Below, one piece after another: positions 3,961-62,918 of a DNA stretch of 64,000 nt. The notes below the pieces were generated by a model that saw only the letters and a program-made list of their open reading frames with translations, was not told the DNA's origin and did not search any database. Every line of letters starts with the position of its first letter. Within the stretch, counting starts at the first letter, position 1. The translations under genes and the position numbers were made by a program. The DNA is from Mytilus trossulus (Eukaryota): positions 50,261,378-50,325,377 of the forward strand of contig NC_086382.1 in the NCBI RefSeq assembly GCF_036588685.1, given 5' to 3'.

Positions 3961-3964
3961 GTTA

Positions 3965-7340: not shown

Positions 7341-8440
7341 TCGTTAACTTTTACAAAAATCTTCTCCTCTGAAACTACTAGGCCAAATTTTACCAAACTT
7401 GGCCACAATCGTCATTAGGGTATCTAGTTTAAAAAATATGTCCGGTGACCCGGCCAACCATCCAAGATGGCCGCCATGGCTAAAAATAGAACATAAGGGT
7501 AAAATGCAGTTTTTGGCTTATAACTCAAATACAAAAGCATTTAGAGCAAATCTGACATGGGGTAAAATTGTTTATCAGGTCAAGATCTATCTGCCCTGAA
7601 ATTTTCAGATAAATCAGATAACCTGTTAGTGGGTTGCTGCCCGTGAATTAGTAATTTTAAGGAAATTTTGCTGTTTTTGGATATTATCTTGAATATTATT
7701 ATAGATAGAGATAAACTGTAAACAGCAATAATGTTCAGCAAAGTAAGATTTACAAATAAGACAACATGACCGAAATGGTCAGTTGCCCCTTTAGAAGTTA
7801 TTGCCCTTTATAGTCAATTTTTAACCATTTTTCGTAAATCTTAGTAATCTTTTACTAAAATCTTCTTCTCTGAAACTACTGGGACAAATTAATCCAAACT
7901 TGGCAACAATCATCATTGGGGTATCTAGTTTAAAAAGTGTGTGGCGTGACCCGGCCAACTAACAAAGATGGCCGCCATGGCTAAAAATAGAACATAAGGG
8001 TAAAATGCAGTTTTTGGCTTATAACTCAAAAACCAAAGCTTTCAAAGCAAATCTGACATGAAGTAAAAATGTTTACAGGTCAAGATCTATCTGCCCTGAA
8101 ATTTTCAGATGAATCAGTCAACCTGTTGTTGGGTTGCTGCCCCTGAATTGGTAATTTTAATGAAATTTTGCTGTTTTTTTTTATGATCTTGAATACTATT
8201 ATAGATAGAGATAAACTGTAAAAAGCAATAAATGTCGACAAAGTAAGATCTACAAATAAGTCAACATGACCGAAATGGTCAGGAGTTATTGCCCTTTATA
8301 GTCAATTTTTAACCATTTTTCGTAAATCTTAGTAATCTTTTACAAAAATCTTCTCCTCTGAAACTACTGGGCCAAGTTCATTATAGATAAAGATAATTGT
8401 AAGCAGCAAGAATGTTCAGTAAAGTAAGATGTCCAAACAC
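7341..8440. repeat. satellite of about 500-bp units, about 2.2 tandem copies
   Basis: Units begin near 7341, 7855 and 8340 and are about 85-90 percent identical (ccaagatggccgccatggctaaaaatagaacataagggtaaaatgcag...). Confidence 0.8.
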
Positions 8441-10029
8441 ATCACCATCACCAAAATACAATTTTGTCATGAATCCATCTGTGTCCTTTGTTTAATATTC
8501 ACATAGACCAAGGTTTTTCGAAAAACTCAAAGTTTTGTAAACAGGAAATTTATAAAAATGACCAAATTATTGATATTCATGTCAACACCGAAGCCACGAA
8601 ACATCCACCAGTATCGACCCAGTGGTGTAAATAGTTGTCAAAGGTACCAGGATTATAATTTAGTACGTCAGACTCGTGTTTTGTCTACATAGGACTCATC
8701 AGTGACGCGCATATGAAAATAGTTATATGTTGAAGAGCATTGAGGATCCAAAATTCCAAAAAGTTGTGCCAACCCTGTTACTTATCGATAAAATACATTA
8801 GACAAAGAGAAAATAAACACATTAATTAATTTCATACTATAAGTACATACCTTGCAGGAGATAGCAGTCATGTTGTATGTTTTTTTTATATCTCTTTAAT
8901 TTATATTGATTACGGTAATCCATGGTTTAAAGATGCACTCGATTATGTTAAAATGTTATGTGAATCTGGTTTAAAGGTGCACTCGTTTATGTTTTTATAA
9001 TGTTATATTATTTACCACTAGTAGTACATTCTATAAAGATATTCCTTTTTCACTCATTGTCATATAAAAGAATATGAGTATTATAACATGTATGCTATTT
9101 TTTTCGGATAATACAGTGCACTTTTTTCAGCCTCCTGCTTCCCGGACAGTTGGTTTAAATGTAAACGGGAATCCACAGTTTGCATCCTGGGCAACTGAGG
9201 AAATTGTAAACAGAAAATATTTGGAATAAACAAGTATCAATTTAAAAAAAAAAAAAAGTTGTGCCAAATACGGCTAAAGTAATCTATGCCTGGTATAAGA
9301 AAATCCTTAGTTTTTCGAAAAATTCAAAGTTTTGTAAACAGGAAATTTTCGAAAATTCAACTTTAAAATGTGTTTTTATATAAAACCATCATTCACGCAA
9401 TTAACCTTCAAATTTCATGCAAGGACCGAAGCCCCTAAATTCGGCAATTAATGTGTTAAACGCAAGACTTCAGGAATGTCCGTAGAACGGACAACCTTGG
9501 TTCGGAAGTTGAATTTTGACCTGTGAACTTTACTAATACTTTTAAAATTCCCGCCATTTAAACTTCAAATCATTTCTATATTTAGAACGACAGGAAGTTG
9601 TGAAAGAAGAAACTGAGTCAAACTGAAAACTGAAACATCAACATGTAATTCTTGCCAACATTCGCAGTGTTTACCTGTTAACTATCTCATATGTTCTTAT
9701 AGCCACTTTTCCAATAATAGTTAAAAACTCTTCAGGTAAAAATTGTTGTTGGTGCCGAGTTGATTTATTTGTGCGTCGCGTAAAAAATATTATGCTACAA
9801 AAGGGGATTTCCATGTTTCACGACTCTGATCCAAATCAGCAAAAAGTGACTGACTTGTATACTATAGTCATGAGTCAATTAGATAAACATGAATTTAGAC
9901 ATGATATCAGAAGACACTAGATTATAAATACATTGTACATTACAAATGCATTAGGATCGTGATATGGTGTAGTATACTATATATTTTTATGAACAAATAA
10001 GAAAAATCATCTCCTGCTGTGAGTGATCT

Positions 10030-10520
10030 AAGTGTAGTGGGGTTGCTTCCCATTAGTACAGGTAGAACATATATAGCTAGTCTTAATCAACTGAGCTAGG
10101 GAATCGATTCTTTGGCTCAGTGGGTGAACGCACTGCGTGACTGTCACCCAGATGACAAGGGTTCGAATCTGGGTGATGACGATATGAATTTGTAGAGTAG
10201 ATCTATACGTGCTATCCGGTGACATTTGGCGCCCGACTAAAAAATCCACGATGGTTATCTGGAGTATAGCCAGGGTTTGTGCTGTTAAGAGTCATATATG
10301 AAGATATGATGACTCTTGTTGTGGGGGAATAGTGTAGGGGGATTGCTTCCCCTCAGTACAGGTAGAACATATATATTGCCAGTCTTAATCAACTGAGCTA
10401 GGGAATCGATGCTTTGGCTCAGTGGGTTAACACACTGACTTCACCTAGACGACCAGAGTTCGAATCCCGGTGATAACGATATGAATTTGTAGAGTAGATA
10501 CGTGCTCTCCGGTTACATAA
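10030..10520 (+). repeat. tandem pair of tRNA-derived SINE-like units (about 290 bp each)
   Basis: Both units contain ggctcagtgggt.aac and a gttcgaatc T-loop-like box. They lie about 400 bp upstream of PARP4-like exon 1. Confidence 0.45.
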
Positions 10521-10915
10521 GCATCACTTTATTTTAATTCAACAGATTTTCACTTTTCACCTAAAATAATGAAATATACAGTGACAATTAAAGCAAGGAT
10601 TAACGCATGCAAAAGGGGCGTAAATTAGACCTTATTCAGTTATTCTGGATAATTTGAGACCTTTAATGATTACGAGGGGCGTTAAATTAAAATGTCTTGC
10701 AAGTTGAACTTTTAACCGATTTCATAAAACACAGTGAAAAACAAACTTTTTTTACGGATGCACTTTAAATATTGGATTTTCATCGAACTATGCAGCTATC
10801 TCAGATATATATTAAGCTTACTGAACCCCAGGTCATTTTGTTTTTTGTTGTATTGCTGAAAGTTTATCAATAGAAAATAAGAAAGTAATGATATATTTCT
10901 GTTTTCAGATAAAAA

Positions 10916-11044
10916 ATGTCAATATTTAGTGATTGTCAGATAGTCCTGGACTTGACTACCAGTGTCAACTTAAAAAAAAAGACAGAAATCAGGAAAAAGA
11001 TCACTGAAAATGGAGGAATTATTTCTTACCTTGTCACCAAGAAG
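10916..11044 (+). CDS. PARP4: PARP4-like exon 1 (start codon; BRCT N-terminus MSIFSDCQIVLDLTTSVNLKKKTEIRKKITENGGIISYLVTKK)
   Basis: ATG at 10916 and a GTATGT donor at 11045. Aligns to the human PARP4 N-terminus (KKKLQTDIKENGGKFSFSL). Confidence 0.6.
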
Positions 11045-11107
11045 GTATGTACAAGGCAATAATAAATTTTGAATGAAAATTTGCTTGTTGAACAATTCAT
11101 ATGAACT

Positions 11108-12920: not shown

Positions 12921-13677
12921 ATCTGTACATGTAAGGCTTATATATGACAACAAGAAAAATCCATGCTGTTTAGTCTGCTATAAAAGTCTCCAAACATGAA
13001 AAATTAGAAAACAATTCAATTCAGCAAACACTGAATTACAGACTCTTTGATTGGTTATTAACTGCGCCCTGGTGTGTTGTTGTAGCATGCTTGCCTCAAG
13101 TGCAGGAGATTGTGGGTTTGAAACCAAGAAGTATAACACAAAAGACTTTATTATTGGGTATTTGCTTCTTTTCTGTGATGCAACCGCATTAAAAAAATAA
13201 GAACAAGGACTGGTTTACCCTGAGTAAGAATTATGTGTTAAGGGTATACTGAGATGATCTGATTAATAGGGTAAAATTAAATAAATCAAGAATTCAAAAT
13301 TGATACTTTTAGCTTGAAGAGTATTAGTTCAGGATCAAAATAAGCTAAAATTGATAGGTCATGTAGCTCTTTTCAAGATATTTGACTTATGAAATATGGC
13401 AGAAAAAGGCTGACTTGGACTTTAACATTATATATGCAATGGTATTTTTTAGGTCTCAAATCAAAAGGAAGAAAATTAAGAATCTGCTTAAATTTTGTCA
13501 AATAACCTTTTATGAGCTATTAAGTCTCATGTAAAAAAGATAGATAGGTGTTATTGGGCAAAATATTTTACCTTGTTTGTATGGAAAATCACATTCAAGG
13601 AATCTGAACATTTGACACAAATTTCAAAACCTCCCTAATGGCTACATGTCTTCCGTAGAGACTCATTATCATCTTTA

Positions 13678-14275
13678 TTGTCTAGCTTGTTATATGTTTC
13701 TGGTTTATTTACAGAGTACACATGTTGTTTGTAATGACCCAGAAAAGGCAGATATCAGTTACAAATGTAAAATGGCCACAAAGTATGGATTACCAGTAGT
13801 GTCACTTGATTATATCCATGATTGTGTAGACCAGGGGAGATTACTCAATACAGATAATTACATCCTTGTTGTCTAGTTTGTTATATGTTTCTGGTTTATT
13901 TACAGAGTACACATGTTGTATGTAATGACTCAGAAAAGGCAGATATCAGTTACAAATGTAAAATGGCCACAAAGTATGGATTACCAGTAGTGTCACTTGA
14001 TTATATCCATGAGTGTGTAGACCAGGGGAAATCACTCTGTTGTCTAGCTTGTTATATATTTCTGGTTTATTTACAGAGTACACATGTTGTATGTAATGAC
14101 CCAGAAAAGGCAGATATCAGTTACAAATGTAAAATGGCCACAAAGTATGGATTACCAGTGGTGTCACTTGATTATATCCTTGATTGTGTAGACCAGGGGA
14201 GATTACTCAATACAGATAATTACATCCTGGTTGGAAAGACAAAGTCACAAGAATTCAGCAGTGGCAAAGTACCAG
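13678..14275 (+). repeat. PARP4: tandem triplication of a unit comprising the intron 3' end (acceptor) plus the BRCT-coding exon
   Basis: Units begin at 13678, 13869 and 14039. Each has ttatttacag followed by AGTACACATGTTGT... Only copy 3 continues to a GTAAGT donor (14276). Copy 2 is truncated and copy 1 ends without a canonical donor. Confidence 0.75.
14077..14275 (+). CDS. PARP4: PARP4-like exon 2 (BRCT: STHVVCNDPEKADISYKCKMATKYGLPVVSLDYILDCVDQGRLLNTDNYILVGKTKSQEFSSGKVP); alternative upstream copies at 13715-13864 and 13906-14035
   Basis: Phase 0 in, phase 1 out. Matches human CTHIILDNADV...IREKRLLDVKNY. Confidence 0.6.
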
Positions 14276-27739: not shown

Positions 27740-29029
27740 TTGCACTACATGTATGTAAGTAACCAATTCTCTTTTTGTCGAGCCTTCGACTTTAGTCGAA
27801 AAAGCGAGACTAAGCGATCCTACTTTCCGTCGGCGTCTGCGGCGGCGGCGGCGTCAACAAATATTCACTCTGTGGTTAAAGTTTTTTATACGACCGCTTC
27901 AAAATTTTCGTCGTATATTGCTATCACGTTGGCGTCGTCGTCTGTGCGTCGTTGTCGTCGTCGTCGTCGTCGTCGTCCGAAAATACTTTTAGTTTTCGCA
28001 CTCTAACTTTAGTAAAAGTGAATAGAAATCTATGAAATTTTAACACAAGGTTTATGACCATAAAAGGAAGGTTGGTATTGATTTTGGGAGTTTTGGTCCC
28101 AACATTTTAGGAATTAGGGGCCAAAAAGGGCCCAAATAAGCATTTTCTTGGTTTTCGCACTATAACTTTAGTTTAAGTTAATAGAAATCTATGAAATTTT
28201 GACACAAAGTTGATGACCACAAAAGAAAGGTTGGGATTGATTTTGGGAGTTTTGGTTTTAACAGTTTAGGAATTAGGGGCCAGAAAAGGGCCCAAATAAG
28301 CATTATTCTTGGTTTTCGCACAATAACTTTAGTTTAAGTAAATAGAAATCAATGAAATTTAAATATAATGTTTATGACCACAAAAGGAAGATTGGTATTG
28401 ATTTTGGGAGTTTAGATCCAAACAGTTTAGGAATTAGGGGCCAAAAAGGGACCCAAATAAGCATTTTTCTTGGTTTTCGCACCATAACGATAGTATAAGT
28501 AAATAGAAATCTATGAAATTTAAACACAAGGTTAATGACCATAAAAGGAAAGTTGGTATTGATTTTGGGAGTTTTGGTCCCAACAGTTTAGGAAAAAGGG
28601 GCCCAAAGGGTCCAAAATTAAACTTTGTTTGATTTCATCAAAATTGAATAATTGGGGTTCTTTGATATGCCGAATCTAACTGTGTATGTAGATTCTTAAC
28701 TTTTGGTCCCGTTTTCAAATTGGTCTACATTAAGGTCCAAAGGGTCCAAAATTAAACTTAGTTTGATTTTAACAAAAATTGAATCCTTGGAGTTCTTTGA
28801 TATGCTGAATCTAAAAATGTACTTAGATTTTTGATTATTGGCCCAGTTTTCAAGTTGGCCCAAATCGGGGTCCAAAATTTAACTTTTTTGATTTCATCAA
28901 AAATTGAATAAATGGGGTTCTTTGATATGCCAAATCTAACTGTGTATGTAGATTCTTCATTTTTATACGACCGCAAATTTTGAAAAAATTTTCGTCGTAT
29001 ATTGCTATCACGTTGGCGTCGTCGTCGTT

Positions 29030-29062
<33 letters not shown>

Positions 29063-32000
29063 CGAATACTTTTAGTTTTCGCACTCTAACTTTAGTAAAA
29101 GTGAATAGAAATCTATGAAATTTTAACACAAGGTTTATGACCATAAAAGGAAGGCTGGTATTGATTTTGGGAGTTTTGGTCCCAATATTTTAGGAATTAG
29201 GGGCCAAAAAGGGCCCAAATAAGCATTTTCTTGGTTTTCGCACTATAACTTTAGTTTAAGTTAATAGAAATCTATGAAATTTTGACACAAGGTTTATGAC
29301 CACAAAAGCAAGGTTGGGATTGATTTTGGGAGTTTTGGTTTCAACAGTTTAGGAATTAGGGGCCAAAAAAGGGCCCAAATAAGCATTATTCTTGGTTTTC
29401 GTACAATAACTTTAGTTAAAGTAAATAGAAATCAATGAAATTTAAACACAATGTTTATGACCGCTAAAGGAAGGTTGGTATTGATTTTGGGAGTTTCGGT
29501 CCTAACAGTTTAGGAATTAGGGGCCAAAAAGGGACCCAAATAAGCATTTTTCTTGGTTTTTCGCACCATAGCGTTAGTATAAGTAAATAGAAATCTATGA
29601 AATTTAAACACAAGGTTTATGACTATAAAAGGAAGGTTGGTATTGATTTTGGGAGTTTGGGTCCCAACAGTTAAGGAAAAAGGGGCCCAAAGGGTCCAAA
29701 ATTAAACTTTGTTTGATTTCATGAAAATTGAATAATTGGGGTTCTTTAATATGCCGAATCTAACTGTGTATGTAGATTCTTAATTTTTGGTCCTGTTTTC
29801 AAATTGGTCTACATTAAGGTCCAAAGGGTCCAAAATTAAACTTAGTTTGATTTTAACAAAAATCAAATTCTTGGGCCTCTTTGATATTCTGAATCTAAAC
29901 ATGTACTTAGATTTTTGATTATGGGCCCAGTTTTCAAGTTGGTCCAAATCAGGATCTAAAATTATTATATCAAGTCTTTTCAATTGCACAGTATTGTGCA
30001 ATGGCAAGAAATATCTAATTTCACAATATTGTGAAATAGCAAATTTTTTTTTAATTAAGAGTTATCTTTCTTTGTCCAGTAAAGTAAGCAAGAAATATCT
30101 GCAAGATTTTTTTTTAATTGGAGTTATCTTTCTTTGTCCAGAATCAACTTAAATCTTTGTTATATACAATATACAATGTATATTCACTTTTTACTACCAA
30201 CTGATAAATTTAAATAATCTTTACCATTCAGTGATAACAAGCAGTTTTTTTACATCTTAATATTTTATGATGTATTTAAATGAGTAGTAATTGTTGCAAA
30301 CTTCATTAGAATATTTTAATTGAAATTAGTTTTGGAATAAGGGAGAGGGGGATGTGATTAAAAAATTGGGTTCAAATTTTTCTCATTTGAAATTTCATAA
30401 ATAAAAAGAAAATTTCTTCAAACATTTTTTTGAGAGGATTAATATTCAACAGCATAGTGAATTGCTCTAAGAGAAAACAAAAAAATTAAGTTCATTTGAA
30501 TACATTCATTCTGTGTCAGAAACCTATGCTGTGTCAACTATTTAATCACAATCCAAATTTAGAGCGGAATCCAGCTTGAATGTTGTGTCCATACTTGCCC
30601 CAACTGTTCAGGGTTCAACCTCTGCGGTCGTATAAAGCTACGCCCTGCGGAGCATCTGGTTGGTCCTGTTTTCAAATTGGCCTACATTAAGGTCCAAAGA
30701 GTCCAAAATTAAACTAAGTTTGATTTTAACAAAAATTAAATTCTTGGGCCTCTTTGATATGCTGAATCTAAACATGTACTTAGATTTTTGATTATGGGCC
30801 CAGTTTTCAAGTTGGTCCAAATCAGGATCTAAAATTATTATATTAAGTATTGTGGAATAGCAAGTCTTTTCAATTGCACAGTATTGTGCAATGGCAAGAA
30901 ATATCTAATTTCACAATATTGTGAAATAGCAAATTTTTTTTTAATTAGAGTTATCTTTCTTTGTCCAAAATAGTAAGCAAGAAATATCTTATTGCAAGAA
31001 TTTTTTTTAATTGGAGTTATCTTTCTTTGTCCAGAATCAACTTAAATCTTTGTTATATACAATATACAATGTATATTCACCTTTTACTACCAACTGATAA
31101 ATTTAAATAATCTTTACCATTCAGTGATAACAAGCAGTTTTTTTACATTTTATTTACAGTTTATTTTATGATGTATTTAAATGAGTAGTTATTGTTGCAA
31201 ACTCCATTAGAATATTTTAATTGAGATTAGTTTTGGAATAAGGGAAAGGGGGATGTGATTAAAAAATTGGGTTCAATTTTTCTCATTTGAAATTTCATAA
31301 ATAAAAAGAAAATTTCTTCAAAAATTATTTTGAGAGGATTAATATTGAACAGCATAGTGAATTGCTCTAAGAGAAAACAAAAAAATTTAAGTTCATTAGA
31401 ACACATTCATTCTGTGTCAGAAACCTATGCTGTGTCAACTATTTAATCACAATCCAAATTAAGAGCTGAATCCAGCTTGAATGTTGTGTCCATACTTGCC
31501 CCAACCGTTCAGGGTTCAACCTCTGCCGTCGTATAAAGCTACGCCCTGCAAAGCATCTGGTTGAAATTTTAATAACTTTCTTAAACTATAATGGATTTCT
31601 ACCAAACTTGGACAGAAGCTTGTTTATGATCTTAAGATAGTATCCAGAAGTGAATTTTGTAAAAATAAAATTCAAATTTTTCCAAATTTTACTTATAAAT
31701 GGACTTAGTTTTTCTACGGGGAAACATTACATTCACTCTGTGGTTAAAGTTTTTAGAATTTTAATAACTTTCTTAAACTATCCTGGGTTTGTACCAAACT
31801 TGGACAGAAGCTTGTTTATGATCATAAGATAGTAACCAGAAGTAAATTTTGTAAAATAATAAATCCATTTTTTCCATATTTTACTTTTAAATGGACTTAG
31901 TTTTTCTGCGGGGAAACATTACATTCACCCTGTGGTCAATGGTGGTTAAAGTTTTTAAAATTTTAATAACTTTCTTAAACTATCCTGGGTTTGTACCAAA

Positions 32001-35250: not shown

Positions 35251-35406
35251 GATGTATTTACAGTCAGTGTGGGTAATCTACCACCAGGGTGTGTGGCCCT
35301 CATCAAGATAACTTATGTATCAGAATTACAAGTAGAGGGAGAATTGATTAACTTTACAATTCCTGGATCTGTGGCTCCTTGGAAACAGGGACCCAGTAAT
35401 ACTGAG
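35251..35406 (+). CDS. PARP4: PARP4-like exon 15 (DVFTVSVGNLPPGCVALIKITYVSELQVEGELINFTIPGSVAPWKQGPSNTE)
   Basis: Human counterpart is DVFTVSVGNLPPKAKVLIKITYITEL...ATVAPWQQD. Confidence 0.8.
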
Positions 35407-35692
35407 GTAAGGGAGGTAATCTACCACCAGGGTGTGTAGCCCTCATCAAGATAACTTATGTATCAGAATTACAAGTAGAGGGAGAATTGATTAACTTTAC
35501 AATTCCTGGATCTGTGGCTCCTTGGAAAGAGGGACCCAGTAATACTGAGGTAAGGGAGGTAATCTACCACCAGGGTGTGTAGCCCTCATCAAGATAACTT
35601 ATGTATCAGAATTACAAGTAGAAGGAGAATTAATTAACTTCACAATTCCTGGATCTGTGGCTCCTTGGAAACAGGGACCCAGTAATACTGAG
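35407..35692 (+). repeat. PARP4: two extra tandem copies (143 bp each) of [first 8 nt of intron + last 135 nt of exon 15]
   Basis: gtaaggga + GGTAATCTACC...ACTGAG repeated at 35407 and 35550. The copies differ from the exon at a synonymous GTG-to-GTA site. The 143-nt length would shift the frame if the downstream donors were used. Confidence 0.8.
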
Positions 35693-36943
35693 GTAAGGGA
35701 GGTATTCTATAATATGGGGCTCTCATTATGGGTCTGATCCAGGATCCTGTTTATTGTTTTGTCAGATTAAAGAAGCCCACTTATCATTGTAATAAGTCAA
35801 TGGAGATAATTGGGACAACACCTCAAAATGAGGAACTCAAAAGTCATGTGTAAAGAAAAATCTCTGTGTAGTGAAATTGGACATGTTTCTATTTTTTTCA
35901 AATGACTGAGCTTAACCATTTGTGGTGATTAGGAAAGTAAAGAAACAAAGAATAAATTTGTAAAAACTATGGAGCTATTGAATATGTTCAAAGTATTAAA
36001 ATTTTCAAAGAACTTATTGTGTTAAAAAGGGGATACTTTACCACAAGGAGCCGCATCAAAAAGGATGTTCGGAGAATGCTAATTTACGAAAAAAGTAATC
36101 TCACTTCGTACCTTGAAAATTTAACCACATATGTTAAAATGTCACAAAAAAAGCTATCCTACATATCCAAGTTTACGATATGGATTAAGCTACAGGAAAA
36201 AACGTTACCATTACCGCCTATGAAAAAACAATAAAAGATATTGACCCAATTGCAAATAGACTGAGACAATGTGTTTGTCCCTAGATATGTTTTGTGCCAA
36301 AAATACAAGTCGTTCAATCTACAGTTCAAATGCTTGTTACAGGGAGAATGAGAAGGATAGACAATTAATACATAGAGAATAATACATGGCAAAATCCGTA
36401 TTATATGTTGTATCATCCCGAGACATCAATATCAGCCCAAGGGCCTTTAGGCCCGAGGGATGATATTGGTTGAGGGTGATACGGCATGTGATATGGATTT
36501 TGCCATGTATTATACGCTTTATCATATATTTCAACAGAAGAGTATTATATTATATGAACTGTTATCTGATCCATAGCACTGGGTTACCTTCAGTTCTGCA
36601 TTTGTCTTGTTTCAAAGCCTTAAAATAACTGCTCAATTATTTATACGAAGCACCTGGATTTTGCCATGTATTATCCTTACAATCTGTTGTTTTAAAAATA
36701 TTTTGTTTATTATTGTATTTATTTGAGTATTTTGTATTTTTTATACATGTATAGTTGCATTCAGTGTACCAAAAAATATGTTGTGAAAACTTATGTTCAT
36801 GACGTCACATACAATATTAAACTTGACGTTCGTGACGTTACATACCAAACAATGACGTCATTAAAAAAATTGACCTATTTTAAGGATTTTTTTCTTAAGC
36901 CAAAAATAAACAAAAACTGACTTCATGTAAAAAAAAAAAAAAA

Positions 36944-42741: not shown

Positions 42742-42990
42742 GTATTGCACTTTACTAGCTGTTAGTTTTTATATTCTTCACATTTATTGTTCACAATTGT
42801 TGAATTAATTTATAAAGTATTGTATAATAATATAATAAGTTGATTTGAGAGCAAAATTATAATTTCTTGATGAAAAATAAAAGTAAACAGTCATGTCTTT
42901 TGATTTGTATAATATTCTACATAAAATTATGAATGATTTCAGGAAGTCTTGATGAGATATCATAATTGAATATCTATTATACTTTTACAG

Positions 42991-43178
42991 GGAATACATG
43001 CTAGTATGGGTAGCACAGAGGTATATCGTCCCCTCCACAGTTTCTTCCTCCTAAAACCGGAGAACTCCTTGAGAAATGTCTTTATATTATCTGACGGCCA
43101 TATTAACAATGAGGAGACAACTCTTAAAGCTGTTCATGACAACTGTCAGCACACTAGGATCTTTACATTCGGTGTCAG
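42991..43178 (+). CDS. PARP4: PARP4-like exon 20 (vWA: ...LRNVFILSDGHINNEETTLKAVHDNCQHTRIFTFGV)
   Basis: Human counterpart is SRNILLVSDGHLQDESLTLQLVKRSRPHTRLFACGIG. Confidence 0.8.
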
Positions 43179-43680: not shown

Positions 43681-43978
43681 TGTATTGTTAGCAGAGAAGC
43701 AGCCAAATACAAAATTTAAAGTTTTTGTTTTGACTCTGATAACAAGCAAACCCATACCCTGCCACACACAATGTGAGTAAGATACCACATAAATACCATT
43801 GCAGTTGTGTTTTGTCGAGAGAAAAAACAACACTAGTATCTTGTACTGATATGCCACAAATAATAAAATAGATTGGAAGTACCTGTACTAATTTGATAAT
43901 TATTAAGGTATCAGGACAAAAGGTAGTGTGCTGTGTGAGTACTGATGTAAATGAAAACATGGTTTACTTATATTTCAG

Positions 43979-44078
43979 TTCTATTGCTAACAAACATGTA
44001 TTAAAGGCTATGTCCAGACTTGGAGCAGGTTCCTTTGAATATTTTGATTCTCATGCAAAATCAAAGTGGGAAAGTAAG
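43979..44078 (+). CDS. PARP4: PARP4-like exon 21
   Basis: (S)SIANKHVLKAMSRLGAGSFEYFDSHAKSKWESK. Human counterpart is STANRHVLRILSQCGAGVFEYFNAKSKHSWRKQ. Confidence 0.8.
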
Positions 44079-44352
44079 GTAAGATGTGATATACAGATAG
44101 ATGCATATTTTTTTTTAAAGTTTATAGGAATAAGTTACAATAAGCAAAGAACAGCATTACTTTATATATTTGTAAGTACATGTTTTTGTAATTTTATATT
44201 ATATTGTTGTTTCAGTAAGGTTTCTTTGTGACTGTTTTTATTTCATGATAGCATATATATGTTATGGTAAATTCTATGTTTCACTATTATTTTTCTTAGT
44301 TCAGATAGGAGGAAGTGTGTTGCTGATACAGTAAATGTTTTGAAAATTTTAA

Positions 44353-46457
44353 TGCCCGTGTCACACTGTCCCGATTTTTATATACGATGGACACCCGAAT
44401 GTGAAAATTGTAAGCTCGTACGAAGTTAGTCCCGATCTCGTTAAAATACCAAAAAGTGACCGAAGCAAGAACGATGAAGAACGAAGTCTATACGATGGTG
44501 CCGAAATTATATACGATAGCAAAAGATGGACATACGAAGGTTAACCGAAGACGGTTATTTAAGCTTCATATCTCAGCCGAAGCCTACAAGTTGGATCACG
44601 AAGGCTACACGATGGATTACGTAGGCTACACGATGGATTACGATGATGGCGCGATGGCCATACGATGTCTAAAATGTGTTCTACCTGTTATGAACTTTTT
44701 ATGATACGAACAGAATAACGACAACATATCGTTTCTGTACAAGTCCGCCATGCATGGCGGGAAATCGATCTTTTTATCTTATTCTTATGAAAGTTAGTTT
44801 ATTATCCCCCTCGCCTACTTCATGTAAGTTGCGTGTAGATAAAATGTTATGGACACTCTAGAACCAAAACGTCAAAACTTGGTATGGTGTTACTCGTTAA
44901 GAATATCTTAAGCGCTTTTGACTTTAAAGTTCAAAGGTCAAGGTCACAGTGGCAGTTGTAATACAAGGCAATATCACCCTTGTGGACACTCTAAAACCAA
45001 TATGCTTCAAAAGATTTTAACCACATTTGGTATATTGTTCCTCCTTGTATTAAATGATCTGACATTTTTTACGTTCAATGCCAAAGGTGAAGGTCATGCA
45101 GATGGACTTGTTTTTTCTCCTTGAAATAACATAATACACAGGAAATTGGTTGCTCAATTTTTTACCTGCTGGTTCTAAAGACACTATTTAGATATTTCCA
45201 GTTACATTGTACTCAATGTTTTGGTTGATTTCTAAAAAAATAGTTTATGTATCAAATATGCATATTCAATTTACCATTTTCTGCATGTGTCATATACACA
45301 TATAGTGTCCATATTTGTCCCCAATATGTTACATACGAGGGGATGCCACGCTCGGCATTGTCTTGTTTTAACTGTAAAATGTGTAGACTAGTCTGAATAA
45401 TCACCCATAATTAAGCCCATGTTTACTGATCTATCTTAAAGTTAAGGTAATGGGTTCGGTGATCCCTTTTATTCTAAAAGAGCTCTTTCCAGGAGAATAT
45501 CATAATAACATAGACAAAATAAAGGATGTGGGGAAAGCAACAAATGCGGCAAAATATGACATATAGAAAACAAGATGGTTATGGAGTAAACATTCGTGTG
45601 ACAACAACTCAGACGATACATAAAAAAATCAGAATAATGAAGAAAAAGTTGGTTTCCCTATATACGTGTACCTTCAGTGTTGGTGTACGAGGCGCGTTTA
45701 TGATTTTCATTATGTTACTTGATATATTTATATGAAAAATTTACAAAAAATAATATTTGACTTGTAAAGGTAAATCCTTAGCCTGTAATAGCTGCTCTTC
45801 TTGTTCCATTTGAATTAATAGAAACAACGCTGTCGCCTTTCTTGATCTCATAGAATCATATGATAGGAGCTCCATGTTGTGTGAACGTCTTTCTTAACTG
45901 TTGTATTAGACTGACCAGTGCATATCGCGCATGGCACTTTTAATGTATTTTAGCGCTAAAATTAACTTAGATTTTGCTAGATTTATTGCCGTCGTAGATT
46001 CATCTTGTCGCCTTCGTACATTTATTCGATGGCAACACGACGGTATTACGAGGTATTCACGTAGTCGTGTTGCCATCATACGACCTTCGGGTAGCTTCGT
46101 GATTCATTCGTGTAGACATCGTAATGTCAAAACTGCCCGATGGAAACGATGGAAACACGAATGCAATACGATGTTCAAAGATGCATTCCCGGTGACATTA
46201 CGATGGGAAGGATGGTGATACGAACTCAATACGAACCCTCAACATCGGACGCACCTTCGGGGATTTTTTAACATGTTAAAAAATTTAGAACCCTTCCCGA
46301 AGTTGTCCCCGAAGGCTAGAAAAAGTGGCCGATGGTTCTACGAAGGTTAAAGATGGCACTACGAATAGCCCGATATGGATACGATCAGTCCCGATTTTGA
46401 AAATTTCCATAATCGTGTTGCCATCGGCATAAAAATTGGGACAGTGTGACGCGGGCA
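44353..46457. mobile_element. non-autonomous DNA transposon of about 2.1 kb with about 27-bp TIRs and flanking TAA direct repeats (PIF/Harbinger-like)
   Basis: TGCCCGTGTCACACTGTCCCGATTTT at 44353 and its reverse complement at 46431-46457. TAA at 44350-44352 and again at 46458-46460. No long intact ORF inside; the internal ORFs of 68-95 aa are low complexity. Confidence 0.55.
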
Positions 46458-46566
46458 TAACAAATAACATTTTACTGCTTAATATATATGTGATGTCATT
46501 GTACATCTTTAAACGTTATGTTGATCATTTGATATATCACGGGGCTAATTAATTCTTTGTTTACAG

Positions 46567-46731
46567 GTGAAATCCCAAATTCAGAAGACCTCTCAACCAG
46601 TGCTGACCTCTGTATCAGTTGCTTGGCAACAGTTTGATAATCCTCCTCCAGTTCAAGCGCCACAACAAATCACAGCTCTGTTTAATGGCTCCAGACTTGT
46701 GGTATATGGATTTGTTAGCAATTGTAAAATG
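46567..46731 (+). CDS. PARP4: PARP4-like exon 22
   Basis: VKSQIQKTSQPVLTSVSVAWQQFDNPPPVQAPQQITALFNGSRLVVYGFVSNCKM. Human counterpart is SVSVKWQQLNPDVPEALQAPAQVPSLFLNDRLLVYGFIPHC. Confidence 0.8.
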
Positions 46732-47413: not shown

Positions 47414-47494
47414 GCTACATTGAAGGCAGAAATAGGTGGGCAACAAATATCAACAGTAGTATATACATCAGAATTAAGTTTGACGAAAGGAAAG
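47414..47494 (+). CDS. PARP4: PARP4-like exon 23
   Basis: ATLKAEIGGQQISTVVYTSELSLTKGK. Human counterpart is ATLCALIQEKEFRTMVSTTELQKTTGT. Confidence 0.65.
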
Positions 47495-50600: not shown

Positions 50601-51019
50601 AAATGATATAAAATCTGTCTTCTGCAATTGATGTATCCAACCTGAGTCACTGTCATTATATCTAACAGATATTTTTTAAAAAGATTCAACTATTTCTAAA
50701 ACTTGGGAATATGTATGTGGCTTCTCAAAATCCTGAAGAGATCTAATATATTGAAAAATTTTAGAATGATTTTTTTTATTGTGATGGATTTTTGATTAAT
50801 TGACAAAATTGGAAGATTAATTATTTAAATTTTTAAATACAAATAAAACAAGCAAAATTTGAAAAAGAAGTTTTCATTTTTGCAAAGCTTATACTGTTGC
50901 AATTTTCTCAATATTAAAAACATCACAAATTATATCTGAATTTACTGTTTTAAAAGCAACACATTTATGAAGGCTGTCTTGATTATATACACAAACATTT
51001 TAAAAGCCTCTACTTGTTT

Positions 51020-54000
51020 GTTAAAGATTGTTTATTAAACATTTGTAGGATGAGGTAATATTGTCAGAGGGATCATTTATATTAGAGTTAGTTGATAGTT
51101 TGTTAGAGATTGTTTATTAAACATTTGTAGGATGAGGAAGTATCGTCAGAGGGATCATTTATATCAGAGTTAGTTGATAGTTTGTTAGAGATTGTTTATT
51201 AAACATTTGTAGGATGAGGTAGTATCGTCAGAGGGATCATTTATATCAGAGTTAGTTGATAGTTTGTTAGAGATTGTTTATTAAACATTTGTAGGATGAG
51301 GTAGTATCGTCAGATGGACCTTTTATATCAGAGTTAGTTGATAGTTTGTTAGAGATTGTTTATTAAACATTTGTAGGATGAGGAAGTATCATCAGATGGA
51401 CCTTTTATATCAGAGTTAGTTGATAGTTTGTTAGAGATTGTTTATTAAACATTTGTAGGATGAGGAAGTATCATCAGATGGACCTTTTTTATCAGAGTTA
51501 GTTGATAGTTTGTTAGAGATTGTTTATTAAACATTTGTAGGATGAGGTAGTATCGTCAGAGGGATCATTTATATCAGAGTTAGTTGATAGTTTGTTAGAG
51601 ATTGTTTATTAAACATTTGTAGGATGAGGAAGTATCATCAGATGGACCTTTTATATCAGAGTTAGTTGATAGTTTGTTAGAGATTGTTTATTAAACATTT
51701 GTAGGATGAGGTAGTATCATCAGAGGGATCATTTATATCAGAGTTAGTTGATAGTTTGTTAGAGATTGTTTATTAAACATTTGTAGGATGAGGTAGAATC
51801 GTCAGATGGACCTTTTATATCAGAGTTAGTTGATAGTTTGTTAGAGATTGTTTATTAAACATTTGTAGGATGAGGAAGTATCATCAGATGGACCTTTTAT
51901 ATCAGAGTTAGTTGATAGTTTGTTAGAGATTGTTTATTAAACATTTGTAGGATGAGGTAGTATCATCAGATGGACCTTTTATATCAGAGTTAGTTGATAG
52001 TTTGTTAGAGATTGTTTATTAAACATTTGTAGGATGAGGTAGAATCGTCAGATGGACCTTTTATATCAGAGTTAGTTGATAGTTTGTTAGAGATTGTTTA
52101 TTAAACATTTGTAGGATGAGGAAGTATCATCAGATGGACCTTTTATATCAGAGTTAGTTGATAGTTTGTTAGAGATTGTTTATTAAACATTTGTAGGATG
52201 AGGTAGTATCGTCAGAGGGATCATTTATATCAGAGTTAGTTGATAGTTTGTTAGAGATTGTTTATTAAACATTTGTAGGATGAGGTAGAATCGTCAGATG
52301 GACCTTTTATATCAGAGTTAGTTGATAGTTTGTTAGAGATTGTTTATTAAACATTTGTAGGATGAGGAAGTATCATCAGATGGACCTTTTATATCAGAGT
52401 TAGTTGATAGTTTGTTAGAGATTGTTTATTAAACATTTGTAGGATGAGGTAGTATCGTCAGAGGGATCATTTATATCAGAGTTAGTTGATAGTTTGTTAG
52501 AGATTGTTTATTAAACATTTGTAGGATGAGGTAGAATCGTCAGATGGACCTTTTATATCAGAGTTAGTTGATAGTTTGTTAGAGATTGTTTATTAAACAT
52601 TTGTAGGATGAGGAAGTATCATCAGATGGACCTTTTATATCAGAGTTAGTTGATAGTTTGTTAGAGATTGTTTATTAAACATTTGTAGGATGAGGTAGTA
52701 TCGTCAGAGGGATCATTTATATCAGAGTTAGTTGATAGTTTGTTAGAGATTGTTTATTAAACATTTGTAGGATGAGGTAGAATCGTCAGATGGACCTTTT
52801 ATATCAGAGTTAGTTGATAGTTTGTTAGAGATTGTTTATTAAACATTTGTAGGATGAGGAAGTATCATCAGATGGACCTTTTATATCAGAGTTAGTTGAT
52901 AGTTTGTTAGAGATTGTTTATTAAACATTTGTAGGATGAGGTAGAATCGTCAGATGGACCTTTTATATCAGAGTTAGTTGATAGTTTGTTAGAGATTGTT
53001 TATTAAACATTTGTAGGATGAGGAAGTATCATCAGATGGACCTTTTATATCAGAGTTAGTTGATAGTTTGTTAGAGATTGTTTATTAAACATTTGTAGGA
53101 TGAGGTAGTATCGTCAGAGGGATCATTTATATCAGAGTTAGTTGATAGTTTGTTAGAGATTGTTTATTAAACATTTGTAGGATGAGGAAGTATCATCAGA
53201 TGGACCTTTTATATCAGAGTTAGTTGATAGTTTGTTAGAGATTGTTTATTAAACATTTGTAGGATGAGGAAGTATCATCAGATGGACCTTTTATATCAGA
53301 GTTAGTTGATAGTTTGTTAGAGATTGTTTATTAAACATTTGTAGGATGAGGTAGTATCGTCAGAGGGATCATTTATATCAGAGTTAGTTGATAGTTTGTT
53401 AGAGATTGTTTATTAAACATTTGTAGGATGAGGTAGAATCGTCAGATGGACCTTTTATATCAGAGTTAGTTGATAGTTTGTTAGAGATTGTTTATTAAAC
53501 ATTTGTAGGATGAGGAAGTATCGTCAGATGGACCTTTTATATCAGAGTTAGTTGATAGTTTGTTAGAGATTGTTTATTAAACATTTGTAGGATGAGGAAG
53601 TATCATCAGATGGACCTTTTATATCAGAGTTAGTTGATAGTTTGTTAGAGATTGTTTATTAAACATTTGTAGGATGAGGTAGTATCGTCAGAGGGATCAT
53701 TTATATCAGAGTTAGTTGATAGTTTGTTAGAGATTGTTTATTAAACATTTGTAGGATGAGGAAGTATCATCAGATGGACCTTTTATATCAGAGTTAGTTG
53801 ATAGTTTGTTAGAGATTGTTTATTAAACATTTGTAGGATGAGGAAGTATCATCAGATGGACCTTTTATATCAGAGTTAGTTGATAGTTTGTTAGAGATTG
53901 TTTATTAAACATTTGTAGGATGAGGAAGTATCGTCAGATGGACCTTTTATATCAGAGTTAGTTGATAGTTTGTTAGAGATTGTTTATTAAACATTTGTAG
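51020..54000 (+). repeat. PARP4: tandem array of about 38 copies of a 78-bp unit, where each unit is the intron 3' end (ttgttagagattgtttattaaacatttgtag) plus the first 47 nt of exon 26 (GATGAGGAAGTATCATCAGATGGACCTTTTATATCAGAGTTAGTTGATAG)
   Basis: Read directly. At least three unit variants (GAGGAAGTATCATCAGATGGACC, GAGGTAGTATCGTCAGAGGGATC, GAGGTAGAATCGTCAGATGGACC) alternate in a higher-order pattern. The last unit runs straight into the authentic exon 26. Confidence 0.9.
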
Positions 54001-54097
54001 GATGAGGAAGTATCGTCAGATGGACCTTTTATATCAGAGTTAGTTGATAGAGAAGATGTGGACTTCCTTAACTACCTCAACTGGGAGGGAGAGACAG
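54001..54097 (+). CDS. PARP4: PARP4-like exon 26
   Basis: DEEVSSDGPFISELVDREDVDFLNYLNWEGET(G). Human counterpart is PFPDIPKVSELIAKEDVDFLPYMSWQGEPQ. Donor GTAAGT. Phase 1 out. Confidence 0.75.
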
Positions 54098-58575: not shown

Positions 58576-59645
58576 AACACTAGTATAAACTGTACTCAAC
58601 TGAAATAAAAACTTGTTTTTGTTTGCTAAAAAATTATCATGTATTGTTTTCAGTGTAATGCCATTGTTAAAAGATACTTACATATATAAAGGACAAGGTA
58701 CGATAAGGCCCAACTTTCTGGTTTTATACAAATATTGTAATTATTATTGACTTTGTAGGTGTTCAGTACAACTAATTTTTAGTTTTTTAGTGCCTGCCCG
58801 AACGTGACCCAGGATTTTTTTTATTCCAATGTCATGAGAACTGTTTTTGCTGTCTAAATCGCCATAATTTTCTCTTGGTCACGTAGGCACACACTATTAA
58901 ATTTTAAGAAACAATGGCCGAAAAACGTTATTTTCCTTCTTTTGGATTTTTTATGCCCTTTTACCCTCCTCACCTCACCCATTTTCTGAAATTGATGGTT
59001 TTGAAGTTCATCCAAACAAACTTCAAACCTAAGGGAATATTTTAACGTGATAAGAAGCTTTCCAAAACAAAATTTGAAAATGAGAAAATAGGGGGGCCAA
59101 AAACCAGCCTTATAGTACCTTGTCCTATATATAATATGAGGCAGGCATTACCTGTAAATGGGGACGAAGTCTGTATGAATTATATTTTTGTAACTTAAAT
59201 ATTTGTTAAAAAAAGAAACGGAAATATACCGTCATGTTTCCGATATTGGTTCTGTCGTTAGGGAGTTTAGTTGTGACGTTATTTAAGTTATGACGTCATA
59301 TGCAATGTAAACAAAGAAACACTATCATCAGGTAACGTTTTTTCATTAAAAATGAAATTGATATTGCGTTTCTTCCTTTTTATAATAGATTGGTAAATAT
59401 ATATTTTACTTAAAGATTCATACAAACAAAACCGGAAAAAGGAAGTACATTGTAGATTTCTGCGCAAGTCCGGGATTTCAAAACATGACATAAAAAAAAT
59501 TGAATGATTTTGAGTTCATTAGTACAATGAAAAATTCGGGAAATTTTCCCGATTTTTTTTTTTATATTGAAATTTCTACTGTTATTGGGGACTTCGTCAC
59601 CATATAAAAAAATATATAAATTTAGATTTTAAATTTGTATTTTAG

Positions 59646-59953
59646 ATAGAGGTACAGTTGACTTTCCAGGATTTTACACATTAATGACACATAAAATGAA
59701 AGATACTGATGCAGAAGAAGAAATAATGGAAGCATTCAAAGTATTTGACAAAGATGGTAAAGGATCTATCAGCATGTCAGATTTAAGACATGTGATGACA
59801 AACTTAGGGGAGAAATTAACAGACGAGGAGATTGAAGAAATGATGAGAGAAGCTGATGTGGACAGTACTGACCAACAGATTGATTATTTTGCCTTTGTAA
59901 AGAGGATGATGGACGAGGAAAAATGTGAACCAGTTCAGCCTTCGGGTAATTAA
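59646..59953 (+). CDS. calmodulin-like terminal exon (EF-hands 2-4, stop TAA at 59951)
   Basis: [84 protein letters not shown]... Calmodulin counterpart is [76 protein letters not shown]. Confidence 0.8.
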
Positions 59954-60077: not shown

Positions 60078-60685
60078 CAAAAATATGCATATGTTTTTTT
60101 ATAACTAAATAGATAGTTTTCATTATACAACTTATGTACATGTACTTTTTTCTGAGGAAAATTCTTTAATTTGTCCACATTTAGAAGAAGTTTTCTTATT
60201 TTTCATTGCTTCCAGGAAGCAATTCGCTGACATAATTTCCGTATGCATAGTGACCTGAGCGTAACCCTCCTCGTTAAAATCCGGTGATCGCAATATGCAT
60301 GGATCTGTCATTAAAATAAACAATTATCTGATTGTACATGTTAAACACATGCTCAATACCTATGCTTTTTGTTATTTGTTTACTATAAGGTGACAATAGG
60401 TAAACTTCGTCTTCAAAATACGGTATTTAATGAGCAGCCATATTTGTTAAATCATAACAGACAGGAAGAGAGAAAAAAATGACGATTAAATGATATATTT
60501 GCGTAAAAAATGATAAATTCCTGCCCAGTCTGGACTAAGTTTAAGATATATACTTGCATTGGTTCAAGAATTGGATAACATTATTTTTCACCACTCACTC
60601 GTTTCTTATGACTTTAATGATCATTGATATGCAGATAAATTTCAAACATTTATATGAATAGAAAATGATCTACTGTTAATTTCAG

Positions 60686-60874
60686 AACAAGACACAAGAT
60701 CCAAATCCAGCCAAATAAAGAACAAAGGTGGTTTTAAAACTCCTGCAGCACAAGAAACTGTGGAAAACTTAAAGGAAAAAGAAGTCATGTTAGGGAAAAA
60801 ACAAGATTTCCTTGAAAAGAAGGTGGACAAGGAACTGAAGTTGGCAAAAGAAAATGCTGCCACAAACAAAACAG
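60686..60874 (+). CDS. CHMP4: CHMP4/Snf7-like (ESCRT-III) internal exon
   Basis: ...KNKGGFKTPAAQETVENLKEKEVMLGKKQDFLEKKVDKELKLAKENAATNKT. CHMP4B counterpart is GGPTPQEAIQRLRDTEEMLSKKQEFLEKKIEQELTAAKKHGTKNKR. The start codon lies upstream and was not found; the in-frame upstream genomic codon is TGA. Confidence 0.7.
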
Positions 60875-60974
60875 GTAATTATTGCAAGTAATCTTAAAAA
60901 TTGGAGTTATCTTCTTATGTAAACAATTGTAGTTGATTCAGCTACAACCAATGCTTATACAATGCAATATTTAA

Positions 60975-61340
60975 TTTTACTTAAGAATTGAATGCATCTT
61001 TTTGTAAATTTATTGGAGTGTAAAAGCCTGGACTGAAGTACATTTTGTATGAAGCACGGAAGTGCTTCATTTTTAAAAATGTGTGTACGGTCAACACTTT
61101 TATAACCCTATAAAGTTACAAAAAGAAGCATTCAATACTTATAATTACATTTTTTAGCTAGGATAATGAAACACGATTTTTATCAAGTTTTTATTTAATT
61201 CACCTGTGTACTTTATTATGGGACCTCGTGTCATTATGAATAGTTTTATTGTGTAATGTAATTGCTTATGGAATAACACGTGCTGTGCAGTTAGCCAATC
61301 AAAATTAACGTATTATAATGAAACATACATCTAATGTAAT
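60975..61340 (+). mobile_element. MITE family C copy (in a CHMP4 intron)
   Basis: aagaattgaatgcatctttttgtaaatttattggagtgtaaaagcctggactg...gaagtgcttcatt...ggtcaacacttttataaccc. Confidence 0.6.
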
Positions 61341-61878
61341 TATTTTCCATTGATAAGTTGAATCAATCTACCATTCAGTACTGATAATTATTTAAATTTA
61401 CTGTTTTGCCTAATACCTGTATGTTGAATACTTTTAAAATTGTTAGATATAACCTTTAATTAGTAGATATGAAGCTTCATCAGTATTTGAAAACATTGAT
61501 CCAAGAAATTTTGAATGTAGCACTGCAGTAAAAAGTGTGCAGTGCTGTTACTTTAAAGATCCCATAGGACAACAAAACAGAAACCTTCAATAAAAAAAAA
61601 TGGCTATTTTAATGCTAGCACCTAGAAATCACTAGTTAAAAACTGTCTGCACACAGTTTTTTGATGATCAATGATTGCTCCTTGGATCCTGTTTTGATTC
61701 AAGTGTCACTCATGAGTCTTTTGTAGACCAAACACATGATCAGTGTACACAGTTTTAATCCTGGTATTGTGAGTTTATTATATTTAATGGCAATATGATT
61801 GAATGAATATTCCATTTAAATCTTCATCTTTGTGTGCATTAACATGGAAATTTATAGTGAGTTTTCACCTATCAATAG

Positions 61879-62056
61879 TTGCTCTGCAAGCTTTAAAGAG
61901 AAAAAAGAGGTATGAAAAACAGTTACAGCAAGTGGATGGAACACTAACAACTATGGAATTTCAGCGAGAGGCATTGGAGCAGGCAACAACTAACAAAGAA
62001 GTTTTGAGTTGTTTGGGTGGGGCTACTAAAGCCTTAAAGATGATCGAGCAACACGG
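61879..62056 (+). CDS. CHMP4: CHMP4/Snf7-like exon
   Basis: (V)ALQALKRKKRYEKQLQQVDGTLTTMEFQREALEQATTNKEVLSCLGGATKALKMIEQH. CHMP4B counterpart is AALQALKRKKRYEKQLAQIDGTLSTIEFQREALENANTNTEVLKNMGYAAKAMKAAH. Confidence 0.85.
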
Positions 62057-62918
62057 GTAAGAATCCAAACATGCATTAAATGTTTAATATCTCATATTTT
62101 TTAATTCTTTACTAAAGAATCCAATTTGATTTTCTTCATCCGACTTCAACAATGAACAAAACCCTTACTATTTAGTAGCTTTAACAATTAAGGAAAACAA
62201 ATGTGTAGGACAGCTATCAAAGCAACCCAATAACATGCTCCCACCTTTATATACAAAATGTGGTAGGTTATACAGATTTGTGAGCACTTATTCTCACCTT
62301 ACCTTGGACAGAAGTGTAACAGCACAACATAAGAACAAACTATGGTATTCAATTTACATAGAACAGAAAACAACGAATAAATATACTAAAGAAACAAAGT
62401 ACAGATCTAAGATGACTGGCAGCTTGTGAAGGTCTATGTATGATCTTAGTTAAAAAGTTTTCCCTTCAGACTTCATTCTTTATTAGCACTGAAGCAATTT
62501 TTCAAAGATTTTATGCTTATATTTAAGGATTTATTTGTAAAGGTATGTAAAATAATTCTCGATGGATTTAACTTGATGTCATTTCTCATCTAGAAGACTG
62601 TTTATCTTTATTTTGCTTTATTTATAGCATTACAGCTGACTGTGATAGGTTTCCCAAAACACAAAAACAGATCTATTACTGACTTATATTAAGTTTTATG
62701 TATTTCATTCAATTCAAAATAAATCTCTAATATTTTAGTAACCTTTCCTAAAGTATTTGCTGTGACAATACAATTTTTCATGGAAAAGCATGGACGATTT
62801 CATTTTTTTTTTTAAAAGGATGAAATTCTCTGAGAGGAAGAAATCATTCTGCCACAAAGTTGACTATTTTTTTTTCTTCCTCATATAACATATATGTAGT
62901 TTTTATGTTTTTTTCCAG

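Follow-up and report, generated by a model that had tools for sequence, protein, structure and literature searches.

The window analysed here, a 64,000-nucleotide stretch of contig NC_086382.1 of Mytilus trossulus (positions 50,261,378 to 50,325,377, forward strand), has a GC content of 32.6% and carries a PARP4-like gene on its plus strand. The domains of this gene follow in the order BRCT (13.6–14.4 kb), PARP catalytic (26.7 kb) and VIT (34.1 kb, E = 2e-25), with a weak VWA_3 match at 43.0 kb. An intron of the vWA region contains an element of 2105 bp (44353–46457) that is bounded by terminal inverted repeats (TIRs) and flanked on both sides by TAA, the target-site duplication (TSD). We identify this element, with a probability of about 0.93, as a non-autonomous PIF/Harbinger transposon that derives by internal deletion from an autonomous Harbinger of the mussel type.

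The position of the element within the host gene was established by tblastn with three VIT/vWA PARP4-like homologues (P0121, P0122 and P0123), which gave colinear exons at 42985–43173, 43974–44096, 46564–46728 and 47414–47494. Both exons next to the element (Table 1) are in phase 0, and the reading frame is kept across the 2488-nt intron between them (44079–46566), of which the element and one TSD copy make up 2108 nt (85%). When concatenated, the PARP4 exons matched no protein near-identically and had their best named match in Crassostrea gigas (85%, VIT exon only); exact look-ups of ORFs gave no match either, and the affinities of the window are those of a bivalve-like genome. A preliminary description of the locus, made from the sequence alone, had placed the insertion in an intron of the PARP4 vWA region, and the exon boundaries and domain order agree with that placement. 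The element has no evident or demonstrated effect on the PARP4-like host gene.

The same description had reported a 26-bp TIR flanked by TAA, short direct repeats in the interior and the lack of a transposase-sized open reading frame (ORF), all of which proved accurate. The 26-mer has two sites only in the window, at 44353–44378 (plus strand, 0 mismatches) and 46432–46457 (minus strand, 2 mismatches), and was matched in 0 of 100 dinucleotide-preserving shuffles. A repeat finder paired the complementary arms 44347–44381 and 46429–46463 at 89% over 35 nt; we refined the TIR to 29 nt, 27 of them matching, with weaker similarity reaching 57 nt at 81%. Across its boundaries (slashes) the element reads tttTAA/TGCCCGTGTCACACTGTCCCGATTTTTAT … ATAAAAATTGGGACAGTGTGACGCGGGCA/TAAcaa, so that the outer bounds including both TAA copies are 44350–46460, and the site without the element, with TAA once, would read …TTTTGAAAATTT-TAA-CAAATAACATTT…. 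We also considered a duplication of TA (Tc1/mariner) or TTAA (piggyBac) and rejected both; the flanks TAA/TGCCC and GGGCA/TAA are a symmetric fit to neither. No second copy was found within the 64-kb window by TIR scan or repeat search.

Nothing in the element appears to encode a protein or a structured RNA. Its longest stop-free stretch is 102 amino acids, none of its ORFs has a Pfam match above threshold, and tblastn with the peptides of an autonomous relative (L001, below) found no remnant of a transposase or MADF gene anywhere in the window at E < 0.8. The element likewise contains no tRNA gene and no Rfam match at gathering score; a match to mir-7940 scored 20.6 bits where the gathering score is 80 and was dismissed as noise. 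Two repeats stand out in the interior, namely a 21-bp tandem array of CGAAGGCTACACGATGGATTA at 44578–44643 and a degenerate duplication, TTATGGACACTCTAGAACCAA and TTGTGGACACTCTAAAACCAA, whose 21-mers lie 133 bp apart (44847–44867 and 44980–45000).

Table 1. Features of the element and its flanking host exons, in window coordinates (slashes mark splice sites)
Feature	Position	Strand	Remarks
Upstream host exon, …SIANKHVLKAMSRLGAGSFEYFDSHAKSKWESK, end of vWA region	43979–44078	+	donor AAG/GTAAGA, GT at 44079
Left TSD copy, TAA	44350–44352		read from sequence; TAA also at copies elsewhere
Left TIR, TGCCCGTGTCACACTGTCCCGATTTTTAT, 29 nt	44353–44381	+	core TCACACTGTCCCGA at 44361–44374
Left subterminal arm, MADF-gene side of the presumed ancestral autonomous element	44382–44670	+	GATGG-N(2-5)-ACGA motifs, tandem array
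Second conserved box, GATGGACACCCGA (family consensus GATGGnnACACGA)	44386–44398	+	recognisable at alignment positions 34–46 in 15/15 ends, two degenerate
Proposed internal-deletion junction	44670–44671		homology to L011 ends here
Non-coding interior	44671–46000	-	homologous to long region upstream of transposase gene in mussel-type autonomous element
Right subterminal arm, transposase side	46001–46428	-	common to autonomous elements of other species
Right TIR, reverse complement TGCCCGCGTCACACTGTCCCAATTTTTAT	46429–46457	-	repeat finder, pattern scan, end alignment
Right TSD copy, TAA	46458–46460		read from sequence
Downstream host exon, VKSQIQKTSQPVLTSVSVAWQQFDNPPPVQ…SNCKM	46567–46731	+	acceptor tttacag/GTG, AG at 46565–46566

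Other copies of the family were sought by scanning public metagenome contigs with the terminal 20-mer TGCCCGYGTCACACTGTCCC, which yielded six loci (L001–L006). Four of these hold complete elements: L002 (2088 bp) and L003 (2059 bp), both flanked by TAA/TAA; L005 (1983 bp), flanked by TTA/TAA; and L004 (896 bp, 1157–2052), flanked by TAA/TAA. L001 and L006 each preserve a single end with an adjoining TAA. L002, L003 and L005 are different loci with unrelated surroundings, and the elements themselves are 96.3–96.6% identical to the window copy over its full length and 99.5–99.9% identical to one another. Because this identity includes the interior, the whole 2.1 kb is one repeated, recently mobile unit. 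The shorter L004 has the appearance of a miniature inverted-repeat transposable element (MITE) and shares the TIR and second box of the family; in its arms it is of the L006 type, and L006 carries a MADF-like ORF. A scan of viral contigs and of bacterial and archaeal genomes with the TIR 20-mer gave one match each (L007 and L013, the latter a bacterial metagenome-assembled genome), which we attribute to chance, both lying in DNA of ~60% GC without a TAA flank or second box.

We aligned 15 element ends from the window and from mussel, clam, sea-cucumber-type, fish and unassigned contigs. TIR positions 9–20, TCACACTGTCCC, are invariant in 14 of the 15 and positions 21–22 (GA) are nearly so. All 15 share a bipartite terminus, in which TCACACTGTCCCGA at positions 9–22, nearly invariant, is followed by GATGGnnACACGA at positions 34–46; this second box is a candidate binding site, by analogy with other Harbingers, for the MADF/Myb-like protein or the transposase. 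The window copy departs from the other ends at two places, with T instead of the usual C at position 7 of its left TIR and a G-to-A change at position 21 of its right TIR, where the 14 other aligned ends have G. Harbinger termini commonly start GG(G/C)C, whereas that of the window element starts TGCCCG….

The preliminary description had taken the TAA for a genuine duplication, the TIR for a conserved end, and autonomous relatives with a DDE transposase and a Myb-like protein to be discoverable through it; the comparison with other copies bears out all three. TAA stands on both sides of the window element, L002, L003, L004 and the clam and sea cucumber elements described below (L010 and L014), and beside the single ends of L001, L006 and the Mytilus edulis locus L011; the TTA/TAA pair of L005 is still of TWA type. 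With a TAA frequency of 0.029 in the window, TAA on both flanks has a chance of ~9e-4 per element, and the joint chance for five complete elements (window, L002, L003, L004 and L010) is ~5e-16, with L014 as a sixth case. Related ends with TAA- or TTA-type flanks are those of the blue mussel (Mytilus edulis) copy and of Antarctic fish.

The TIR search led to an autonomous relative in L001, which has the identical 20-nt terminus with TAA and two coding genes. Its transposase ORF of 409 amino acids matches DDE_Tnp_4 with 98 bits (E = 5.5e-28, cut-off 24.8) and Plant_tran with 38.8 bits, shows the PIF-typical motifs ALDGKH, VGDNAF and VENAFG, and has 6249 homologues of the HARBI1/ALP1-like type. 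On the opposite strand, ORF1 matches MADF_DNA_bdg after excision of a canonical, in-frame GT-AG intron, with a marginal score of 23.9 bits against a cut-off of 22. The MADF match recurs in all five homologues (L001, L006, L009, L010 and L014; best E = 4.4e-6), and a PDB profile search with the MADF ORF gave no match. Transposase genes with the same termini are present in L008 and L012 (unassigned contigs), L009 (Gymnodraco acuticeps), L010, L014 and L015 (Pogonophryne albipinna). Complete elements of the two-gene type, both flanked by TAA/TAA, were recovered from Manila clam, Ruditapes philippinarum (L010, 40158–46541, 6384 bp), and from the sea cucumber Apostichopus japonicus (L014, 7349–12623, 5275 bp). 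In the G. acuticeps locus, the region 2990–4540 contains two Harbinger ends in the same orientation, 900 bp apart (2992 and 3891), together with inverted end fragments, an arrangement that points to family members inserted into one another or in tandem.

The relation between the window element and a transposase-bearing element is seen most directly in L011. At position 8099 of this M. edulis locus, TAA is followed by TGCCCGCGTCACACTGTCCCGATTTTTA, and 8099–9796 aligns with the window from 46457 down to 44671 (1796 bp, 87–90% identity). About 59 bp past the aligned part lies a degenerate transposase ORF (9855–11083) that reads inward and has 74% nucleotide identity to that of L001. The window interior thus resembles L011 at 87–90% and L002, L003 and L005 at 96%. 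Its right arm extends the comparison to the transposase-side ends of elements from other species, in alignments of 300–476 bp: L008 (476 bp) and clam L010 (444 bp) each share 70% identity with it, L012 shares 69% and fish L009 68%. At the left end, the first 83 bp (44353–44435) match the MADF side of L010 (46541–46459) with 72% identity. Taken together, the continuity of L011 and the homologies of the arms indicate that the element joins a left arm to the transposase side and that everything between them was deleted. What it keeps is 318 bp of the MADF-side arm (44353–44670) and ~1.79 kb of the transposase side (44671–46457), the latter including all of the sequence that precedes the transposase gene, which here lies on the minus strand of the window. 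Judged by its sequence, the window element is an internal-deletion derivative with the classical structure of such derivatives, and it has lost both the transposase and the MADF gene.

The arms share a motif that is highly concentrated in the element. GATGG-N(2-5)-ACGA occurs 11 times in the window copy, against 0.06 expected from shuffles, and all 11 occurrences lie in the two arms, 8 of them in the right one. The rest of the window has 0, L002 has 14, clam L010 has 4, sea cucumber L014 has 5, and 118 kb of non-element background has 1. The orientation of the motifs is alike in all longer elements, those of clam and sea cucumber included: the TIR-proximal copies are inverted, and the remaining copies in both arms run nearly all in one direction. 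This arrangement makes the two ends asymmetric. The right arm also contains a perfect 22-nt palindrome, TTTTTTAACATGTTAAAAAA, at 46263–46284, which is kept in L002, L003 and L005.

The family thus combines a 3-bp TSD of TWA type, conserved short TIRs, a transposase of the DDE_Tnp_4/Plant_tran kind, a MADF second gene and continuity with a transposase-bearing element, as is characteristic of PIF/Harbinger. A 3-bp TSD alone is not exclusive to PIF/Harbinger, and the window copy encodes nothing classifiable; its likeness to Harbinger could then be superficial and its origin lie in another TIR superfamily with a duplication of about 3 bp, such as CACTA/EnSpm-Chapaev, Academ or Zator. We consider this very improbable given that the same terminus and homologous arms occur on elements encoding DDE_Tnp_4 and MADF proteins, that window-like sequence in L011 is contiguous with such a transposase gene, and that the duplication is TAA or TTA in all copies. 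For CACTA in particular, the TIR would start CACTA or CACTG and the transposase be of Transposase_21/24 type, whereas the TIR here starts TGCCCG and the relatives encode DDE_Tnp_4. Neither does the inverted repeat with its TAA flanks look like a product of chance or a structural feature of the intron such as a long hairpin. The TIR turned up in no shuffle and copies 96% identical over their full length lie elsewhere in unrelated flanks, which leaves that explanation a negligible probability despite the presence of only one copy in the 64-kb window.

A different kind of alternative concerns function, namely that the retained transposase-upstream region, antisense to PARP4, has been co-opted and kept for the host, whether as a promoter or regulatory element within the intron or as an exon. 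The region upstream of the transposase start is indeed kept whole on the window minus strand, and the element is rich in CpG (observed/expected 1.22, against 0.62 for the window). The CpG richness, however, is explained by the CG-containing subterminal motifs; the sequence is also common to ordinary dispersed copies, and the private substitutions of the window copy (3.3%) show no sign of constraint. Co-option is therefore quite unlikely, and antisense promoter activity of the retained region is a possible but hypothetical property.

Several points weigh against our identification of the element as a Harbinger deletion derivative or narrow it. L005 has different trinucleotides on its two sides, TTA at the left end and TAA at the right; both are TWA, and the mixture may be a chimera that arose when short reads of near-identical repeats were assembled. 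An intact autonomous copy of the mussel type was not found, the transposase region of L011 containing eight stops, and the 18.7 kb of L011 sequence did not contain the MADF-side end of the mussel-type autonomous element. Its absence leaves the left breakpoint of the deletion to be deduced from the right one alone. That the MADF protein binds GATGG…ACGA is predicted by analogy with zebrafish Harbinger3_DR, which makes the motifs likely sites. Evidence for movement is indirect, in the form of three copies 99.5–99.9% identical at different loci, and cut-and-paste transposition is what we infer from the superfamily.

By what is general in the superfamily, an autonomous family member would supply in trans both the DDE_Tnp_4 transposase and the MADF/Myb-like DNA-binding protein. 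The MADF protein would bind the repeated subterminal GATGG-N(2-5)-ACGA motifs and recruit the transposase, which would cut at the TIRs and move the element in a cut-and-paste reaction to a TAA within the PARP4 intron; the 3 bp would then be duplicated as the staggered break was repaired. The window element resembles the 430-bp mPing of rice and Harbinger-N elements in its short TIRs, its 3-bp TAA/TTA duplication and its origin by deletion. It differs in its animal host and in its size of 2.1 kb, with ~1.8 kb of one arm kept, and is far longer than mPing or typical Tourist MITEs; indeed both the window element (2105 bp) and its siblings (1983–2088 bp) fall outside the size of Tourist-like MITEs (roughly <800 bp). 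mPing arose when Ping, an autonomous element with two genes, underwent internal deletion, and its mobilisation in trans needs the transposase and the ORF1/Myb-like protein (PMC2836001, PMC4055405). More generally, derivatives of this kind, non-autonomous but with TSD and terminal motifs retained, are commonplace (PMC8437027, PMC2836001).

Among animal systems, the closest parallel to the repeated motif is Harbinger3_DR of zebrafish, where, in the account of Sinzelle et al. 2008 given in PMC9710019, a Myb-like protein recognises a 9-bp motif in the subterminal regions, takes the transposase into the nucleus and delivers it to the element ends. Like Harbinger3_DR and Harbinger3N_DR, the window element is an animal Harbinger with a repeated short subterminal motif, here the 12–13-nt GATGG-N(2-5)-ACGA in 11 copies; the motif sequence is a different one, and binding in the window family is predicted from sequence. 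Harbinger-Snek and related marine Harbingers form a lineage patchily common to fish, bivalves and echinoderms (Galbraith et al. 2021, PMC8437027). The family described here is probably another one. Among the homologues, S. purpuratus contributes a single transposase (P0076), which shares 53% identity with that of L001 and is itself not established as Snek-like. In bivalve genomes PIF-Harbinger ranks among the five DDE superfamilies of highest abundance, and 58 autonomous consensus sequences of it have been curated (PMC10294476).

Within the 2.1-kb family, the window copy stands apart by its divergence. When differences were polarised with the M. edulis copy as outgroup, 55 of 58 were derived in the window copy, which carries ~3.3% private substitutions relative to the family master. 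Because the derived changes are concentrated in it, the window copy is probably an older and possibly immobile insertion, and the G21A change in its right TIR may mean that it is no longer a good substrate. Its 69 private substitutions relative to the consensus of L002, L003 and L005 are unusually rich in transversions, with a transition:transversion ratio of ~0.5 (23:46), and CpG transitions account for only 6 of the 69, so that CpG decay gives no information here on age or methylation.

The autonomous relatives from different phyla are highly similar to one another. The L001-type transposase has a protein identity of 91–92% in three notothenioid genera (Gymnodraco, Pogonophryne and Pseudochaenichthys), 89% in Ruditapes and 79% in Apostichopus. 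At the nucleotide level, the transposase genes of fish, clam and sea cucumber are 87–92% identical (fish versus clam 89%), and those of the sister lineage as a whole, unassigned contigs included (L001, L008, L009, L010, L012, L014 and L015), 87–97%. Fish and clam agree at 80% of third codon positions, as against 44.5% for the mussel type and clam. On these comparisons we lean towards a composite reading, which we hold to be somewhat probable as a whole: that the family with terminus TGCCCGCGTCACACTGTCCCGA and the GATGGnnACACGA box includes a lineage that moved horizontally, fairly recently, between notothenioids, Manila clam and sea cucumber; that the mussel-type lineage diverged vertically; and that the 2.1-kb mussel-type non-autonomous family, given its 99.5–99.9% identical copies, was active very recently. 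Horizontal spread among marine animals has already been proposed for related Harbingers, and the near-identity of the sister lineage across phyla would, if true, be a possible further case (PMC8437027). The verdict on the window element is unchanged by this result.

For the genome, the window element is an ordinary member of a very well known kind, a matter of routine repeat annotation and of small import. Its consensus termini and deletion structure can be used to mask and classify the family, and the bipartite terminus with the GATGG…ACGA motif offers a concrete candidate site for how animal Harbinger MADF proteins recognise element ends.

Elsewhere in the window, two tandem repeats involve PARP4 coding sequence. 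At 35272–35709, a 143-bp unit is repeated 3.1 times with 97% identity and carries PARP4 coding sequence, the same homologue residues being matched three times by tblastn, each time in another frame; as 143 is not divisible by 3, either a tandem duplication has disrupted the gene or the repeat is an artefact of assembly. At 13665–14233, a 191-bp unit (3.1 copies, 86% matches) includes a BRCT-domain exon and gives three near-identical BRCT peptides in tandem. Downstream of the vWA exons, a minisatellite of 37 copies of an 82-bp unit (96% identity) occupies 51016–54050 and is crossed by no long ORF. A 161-bp satellite lies at 27992–29944 in two blocks of ~3.9 copies each, alternating with a 135-bp repeat, beside low-complexity ORFs with poly-Arg and poly-Asp runs. 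The start of the window (3–3281) holds two adjacent, partly duplicated reverse-transcriptase copies, resembling those of long interspersed nuclear elements and containing internal stops, whose best named matches come from Pinctada imbricata (81%, covering half the query) and Mytilus edulis (54%). On the plus strand downstream of PARP4, judged from the translations, lie an EF-hand/calmodulin-like terminal exon and Snf7/CHMP4-like exons (59633–59950 and 60658–62057).

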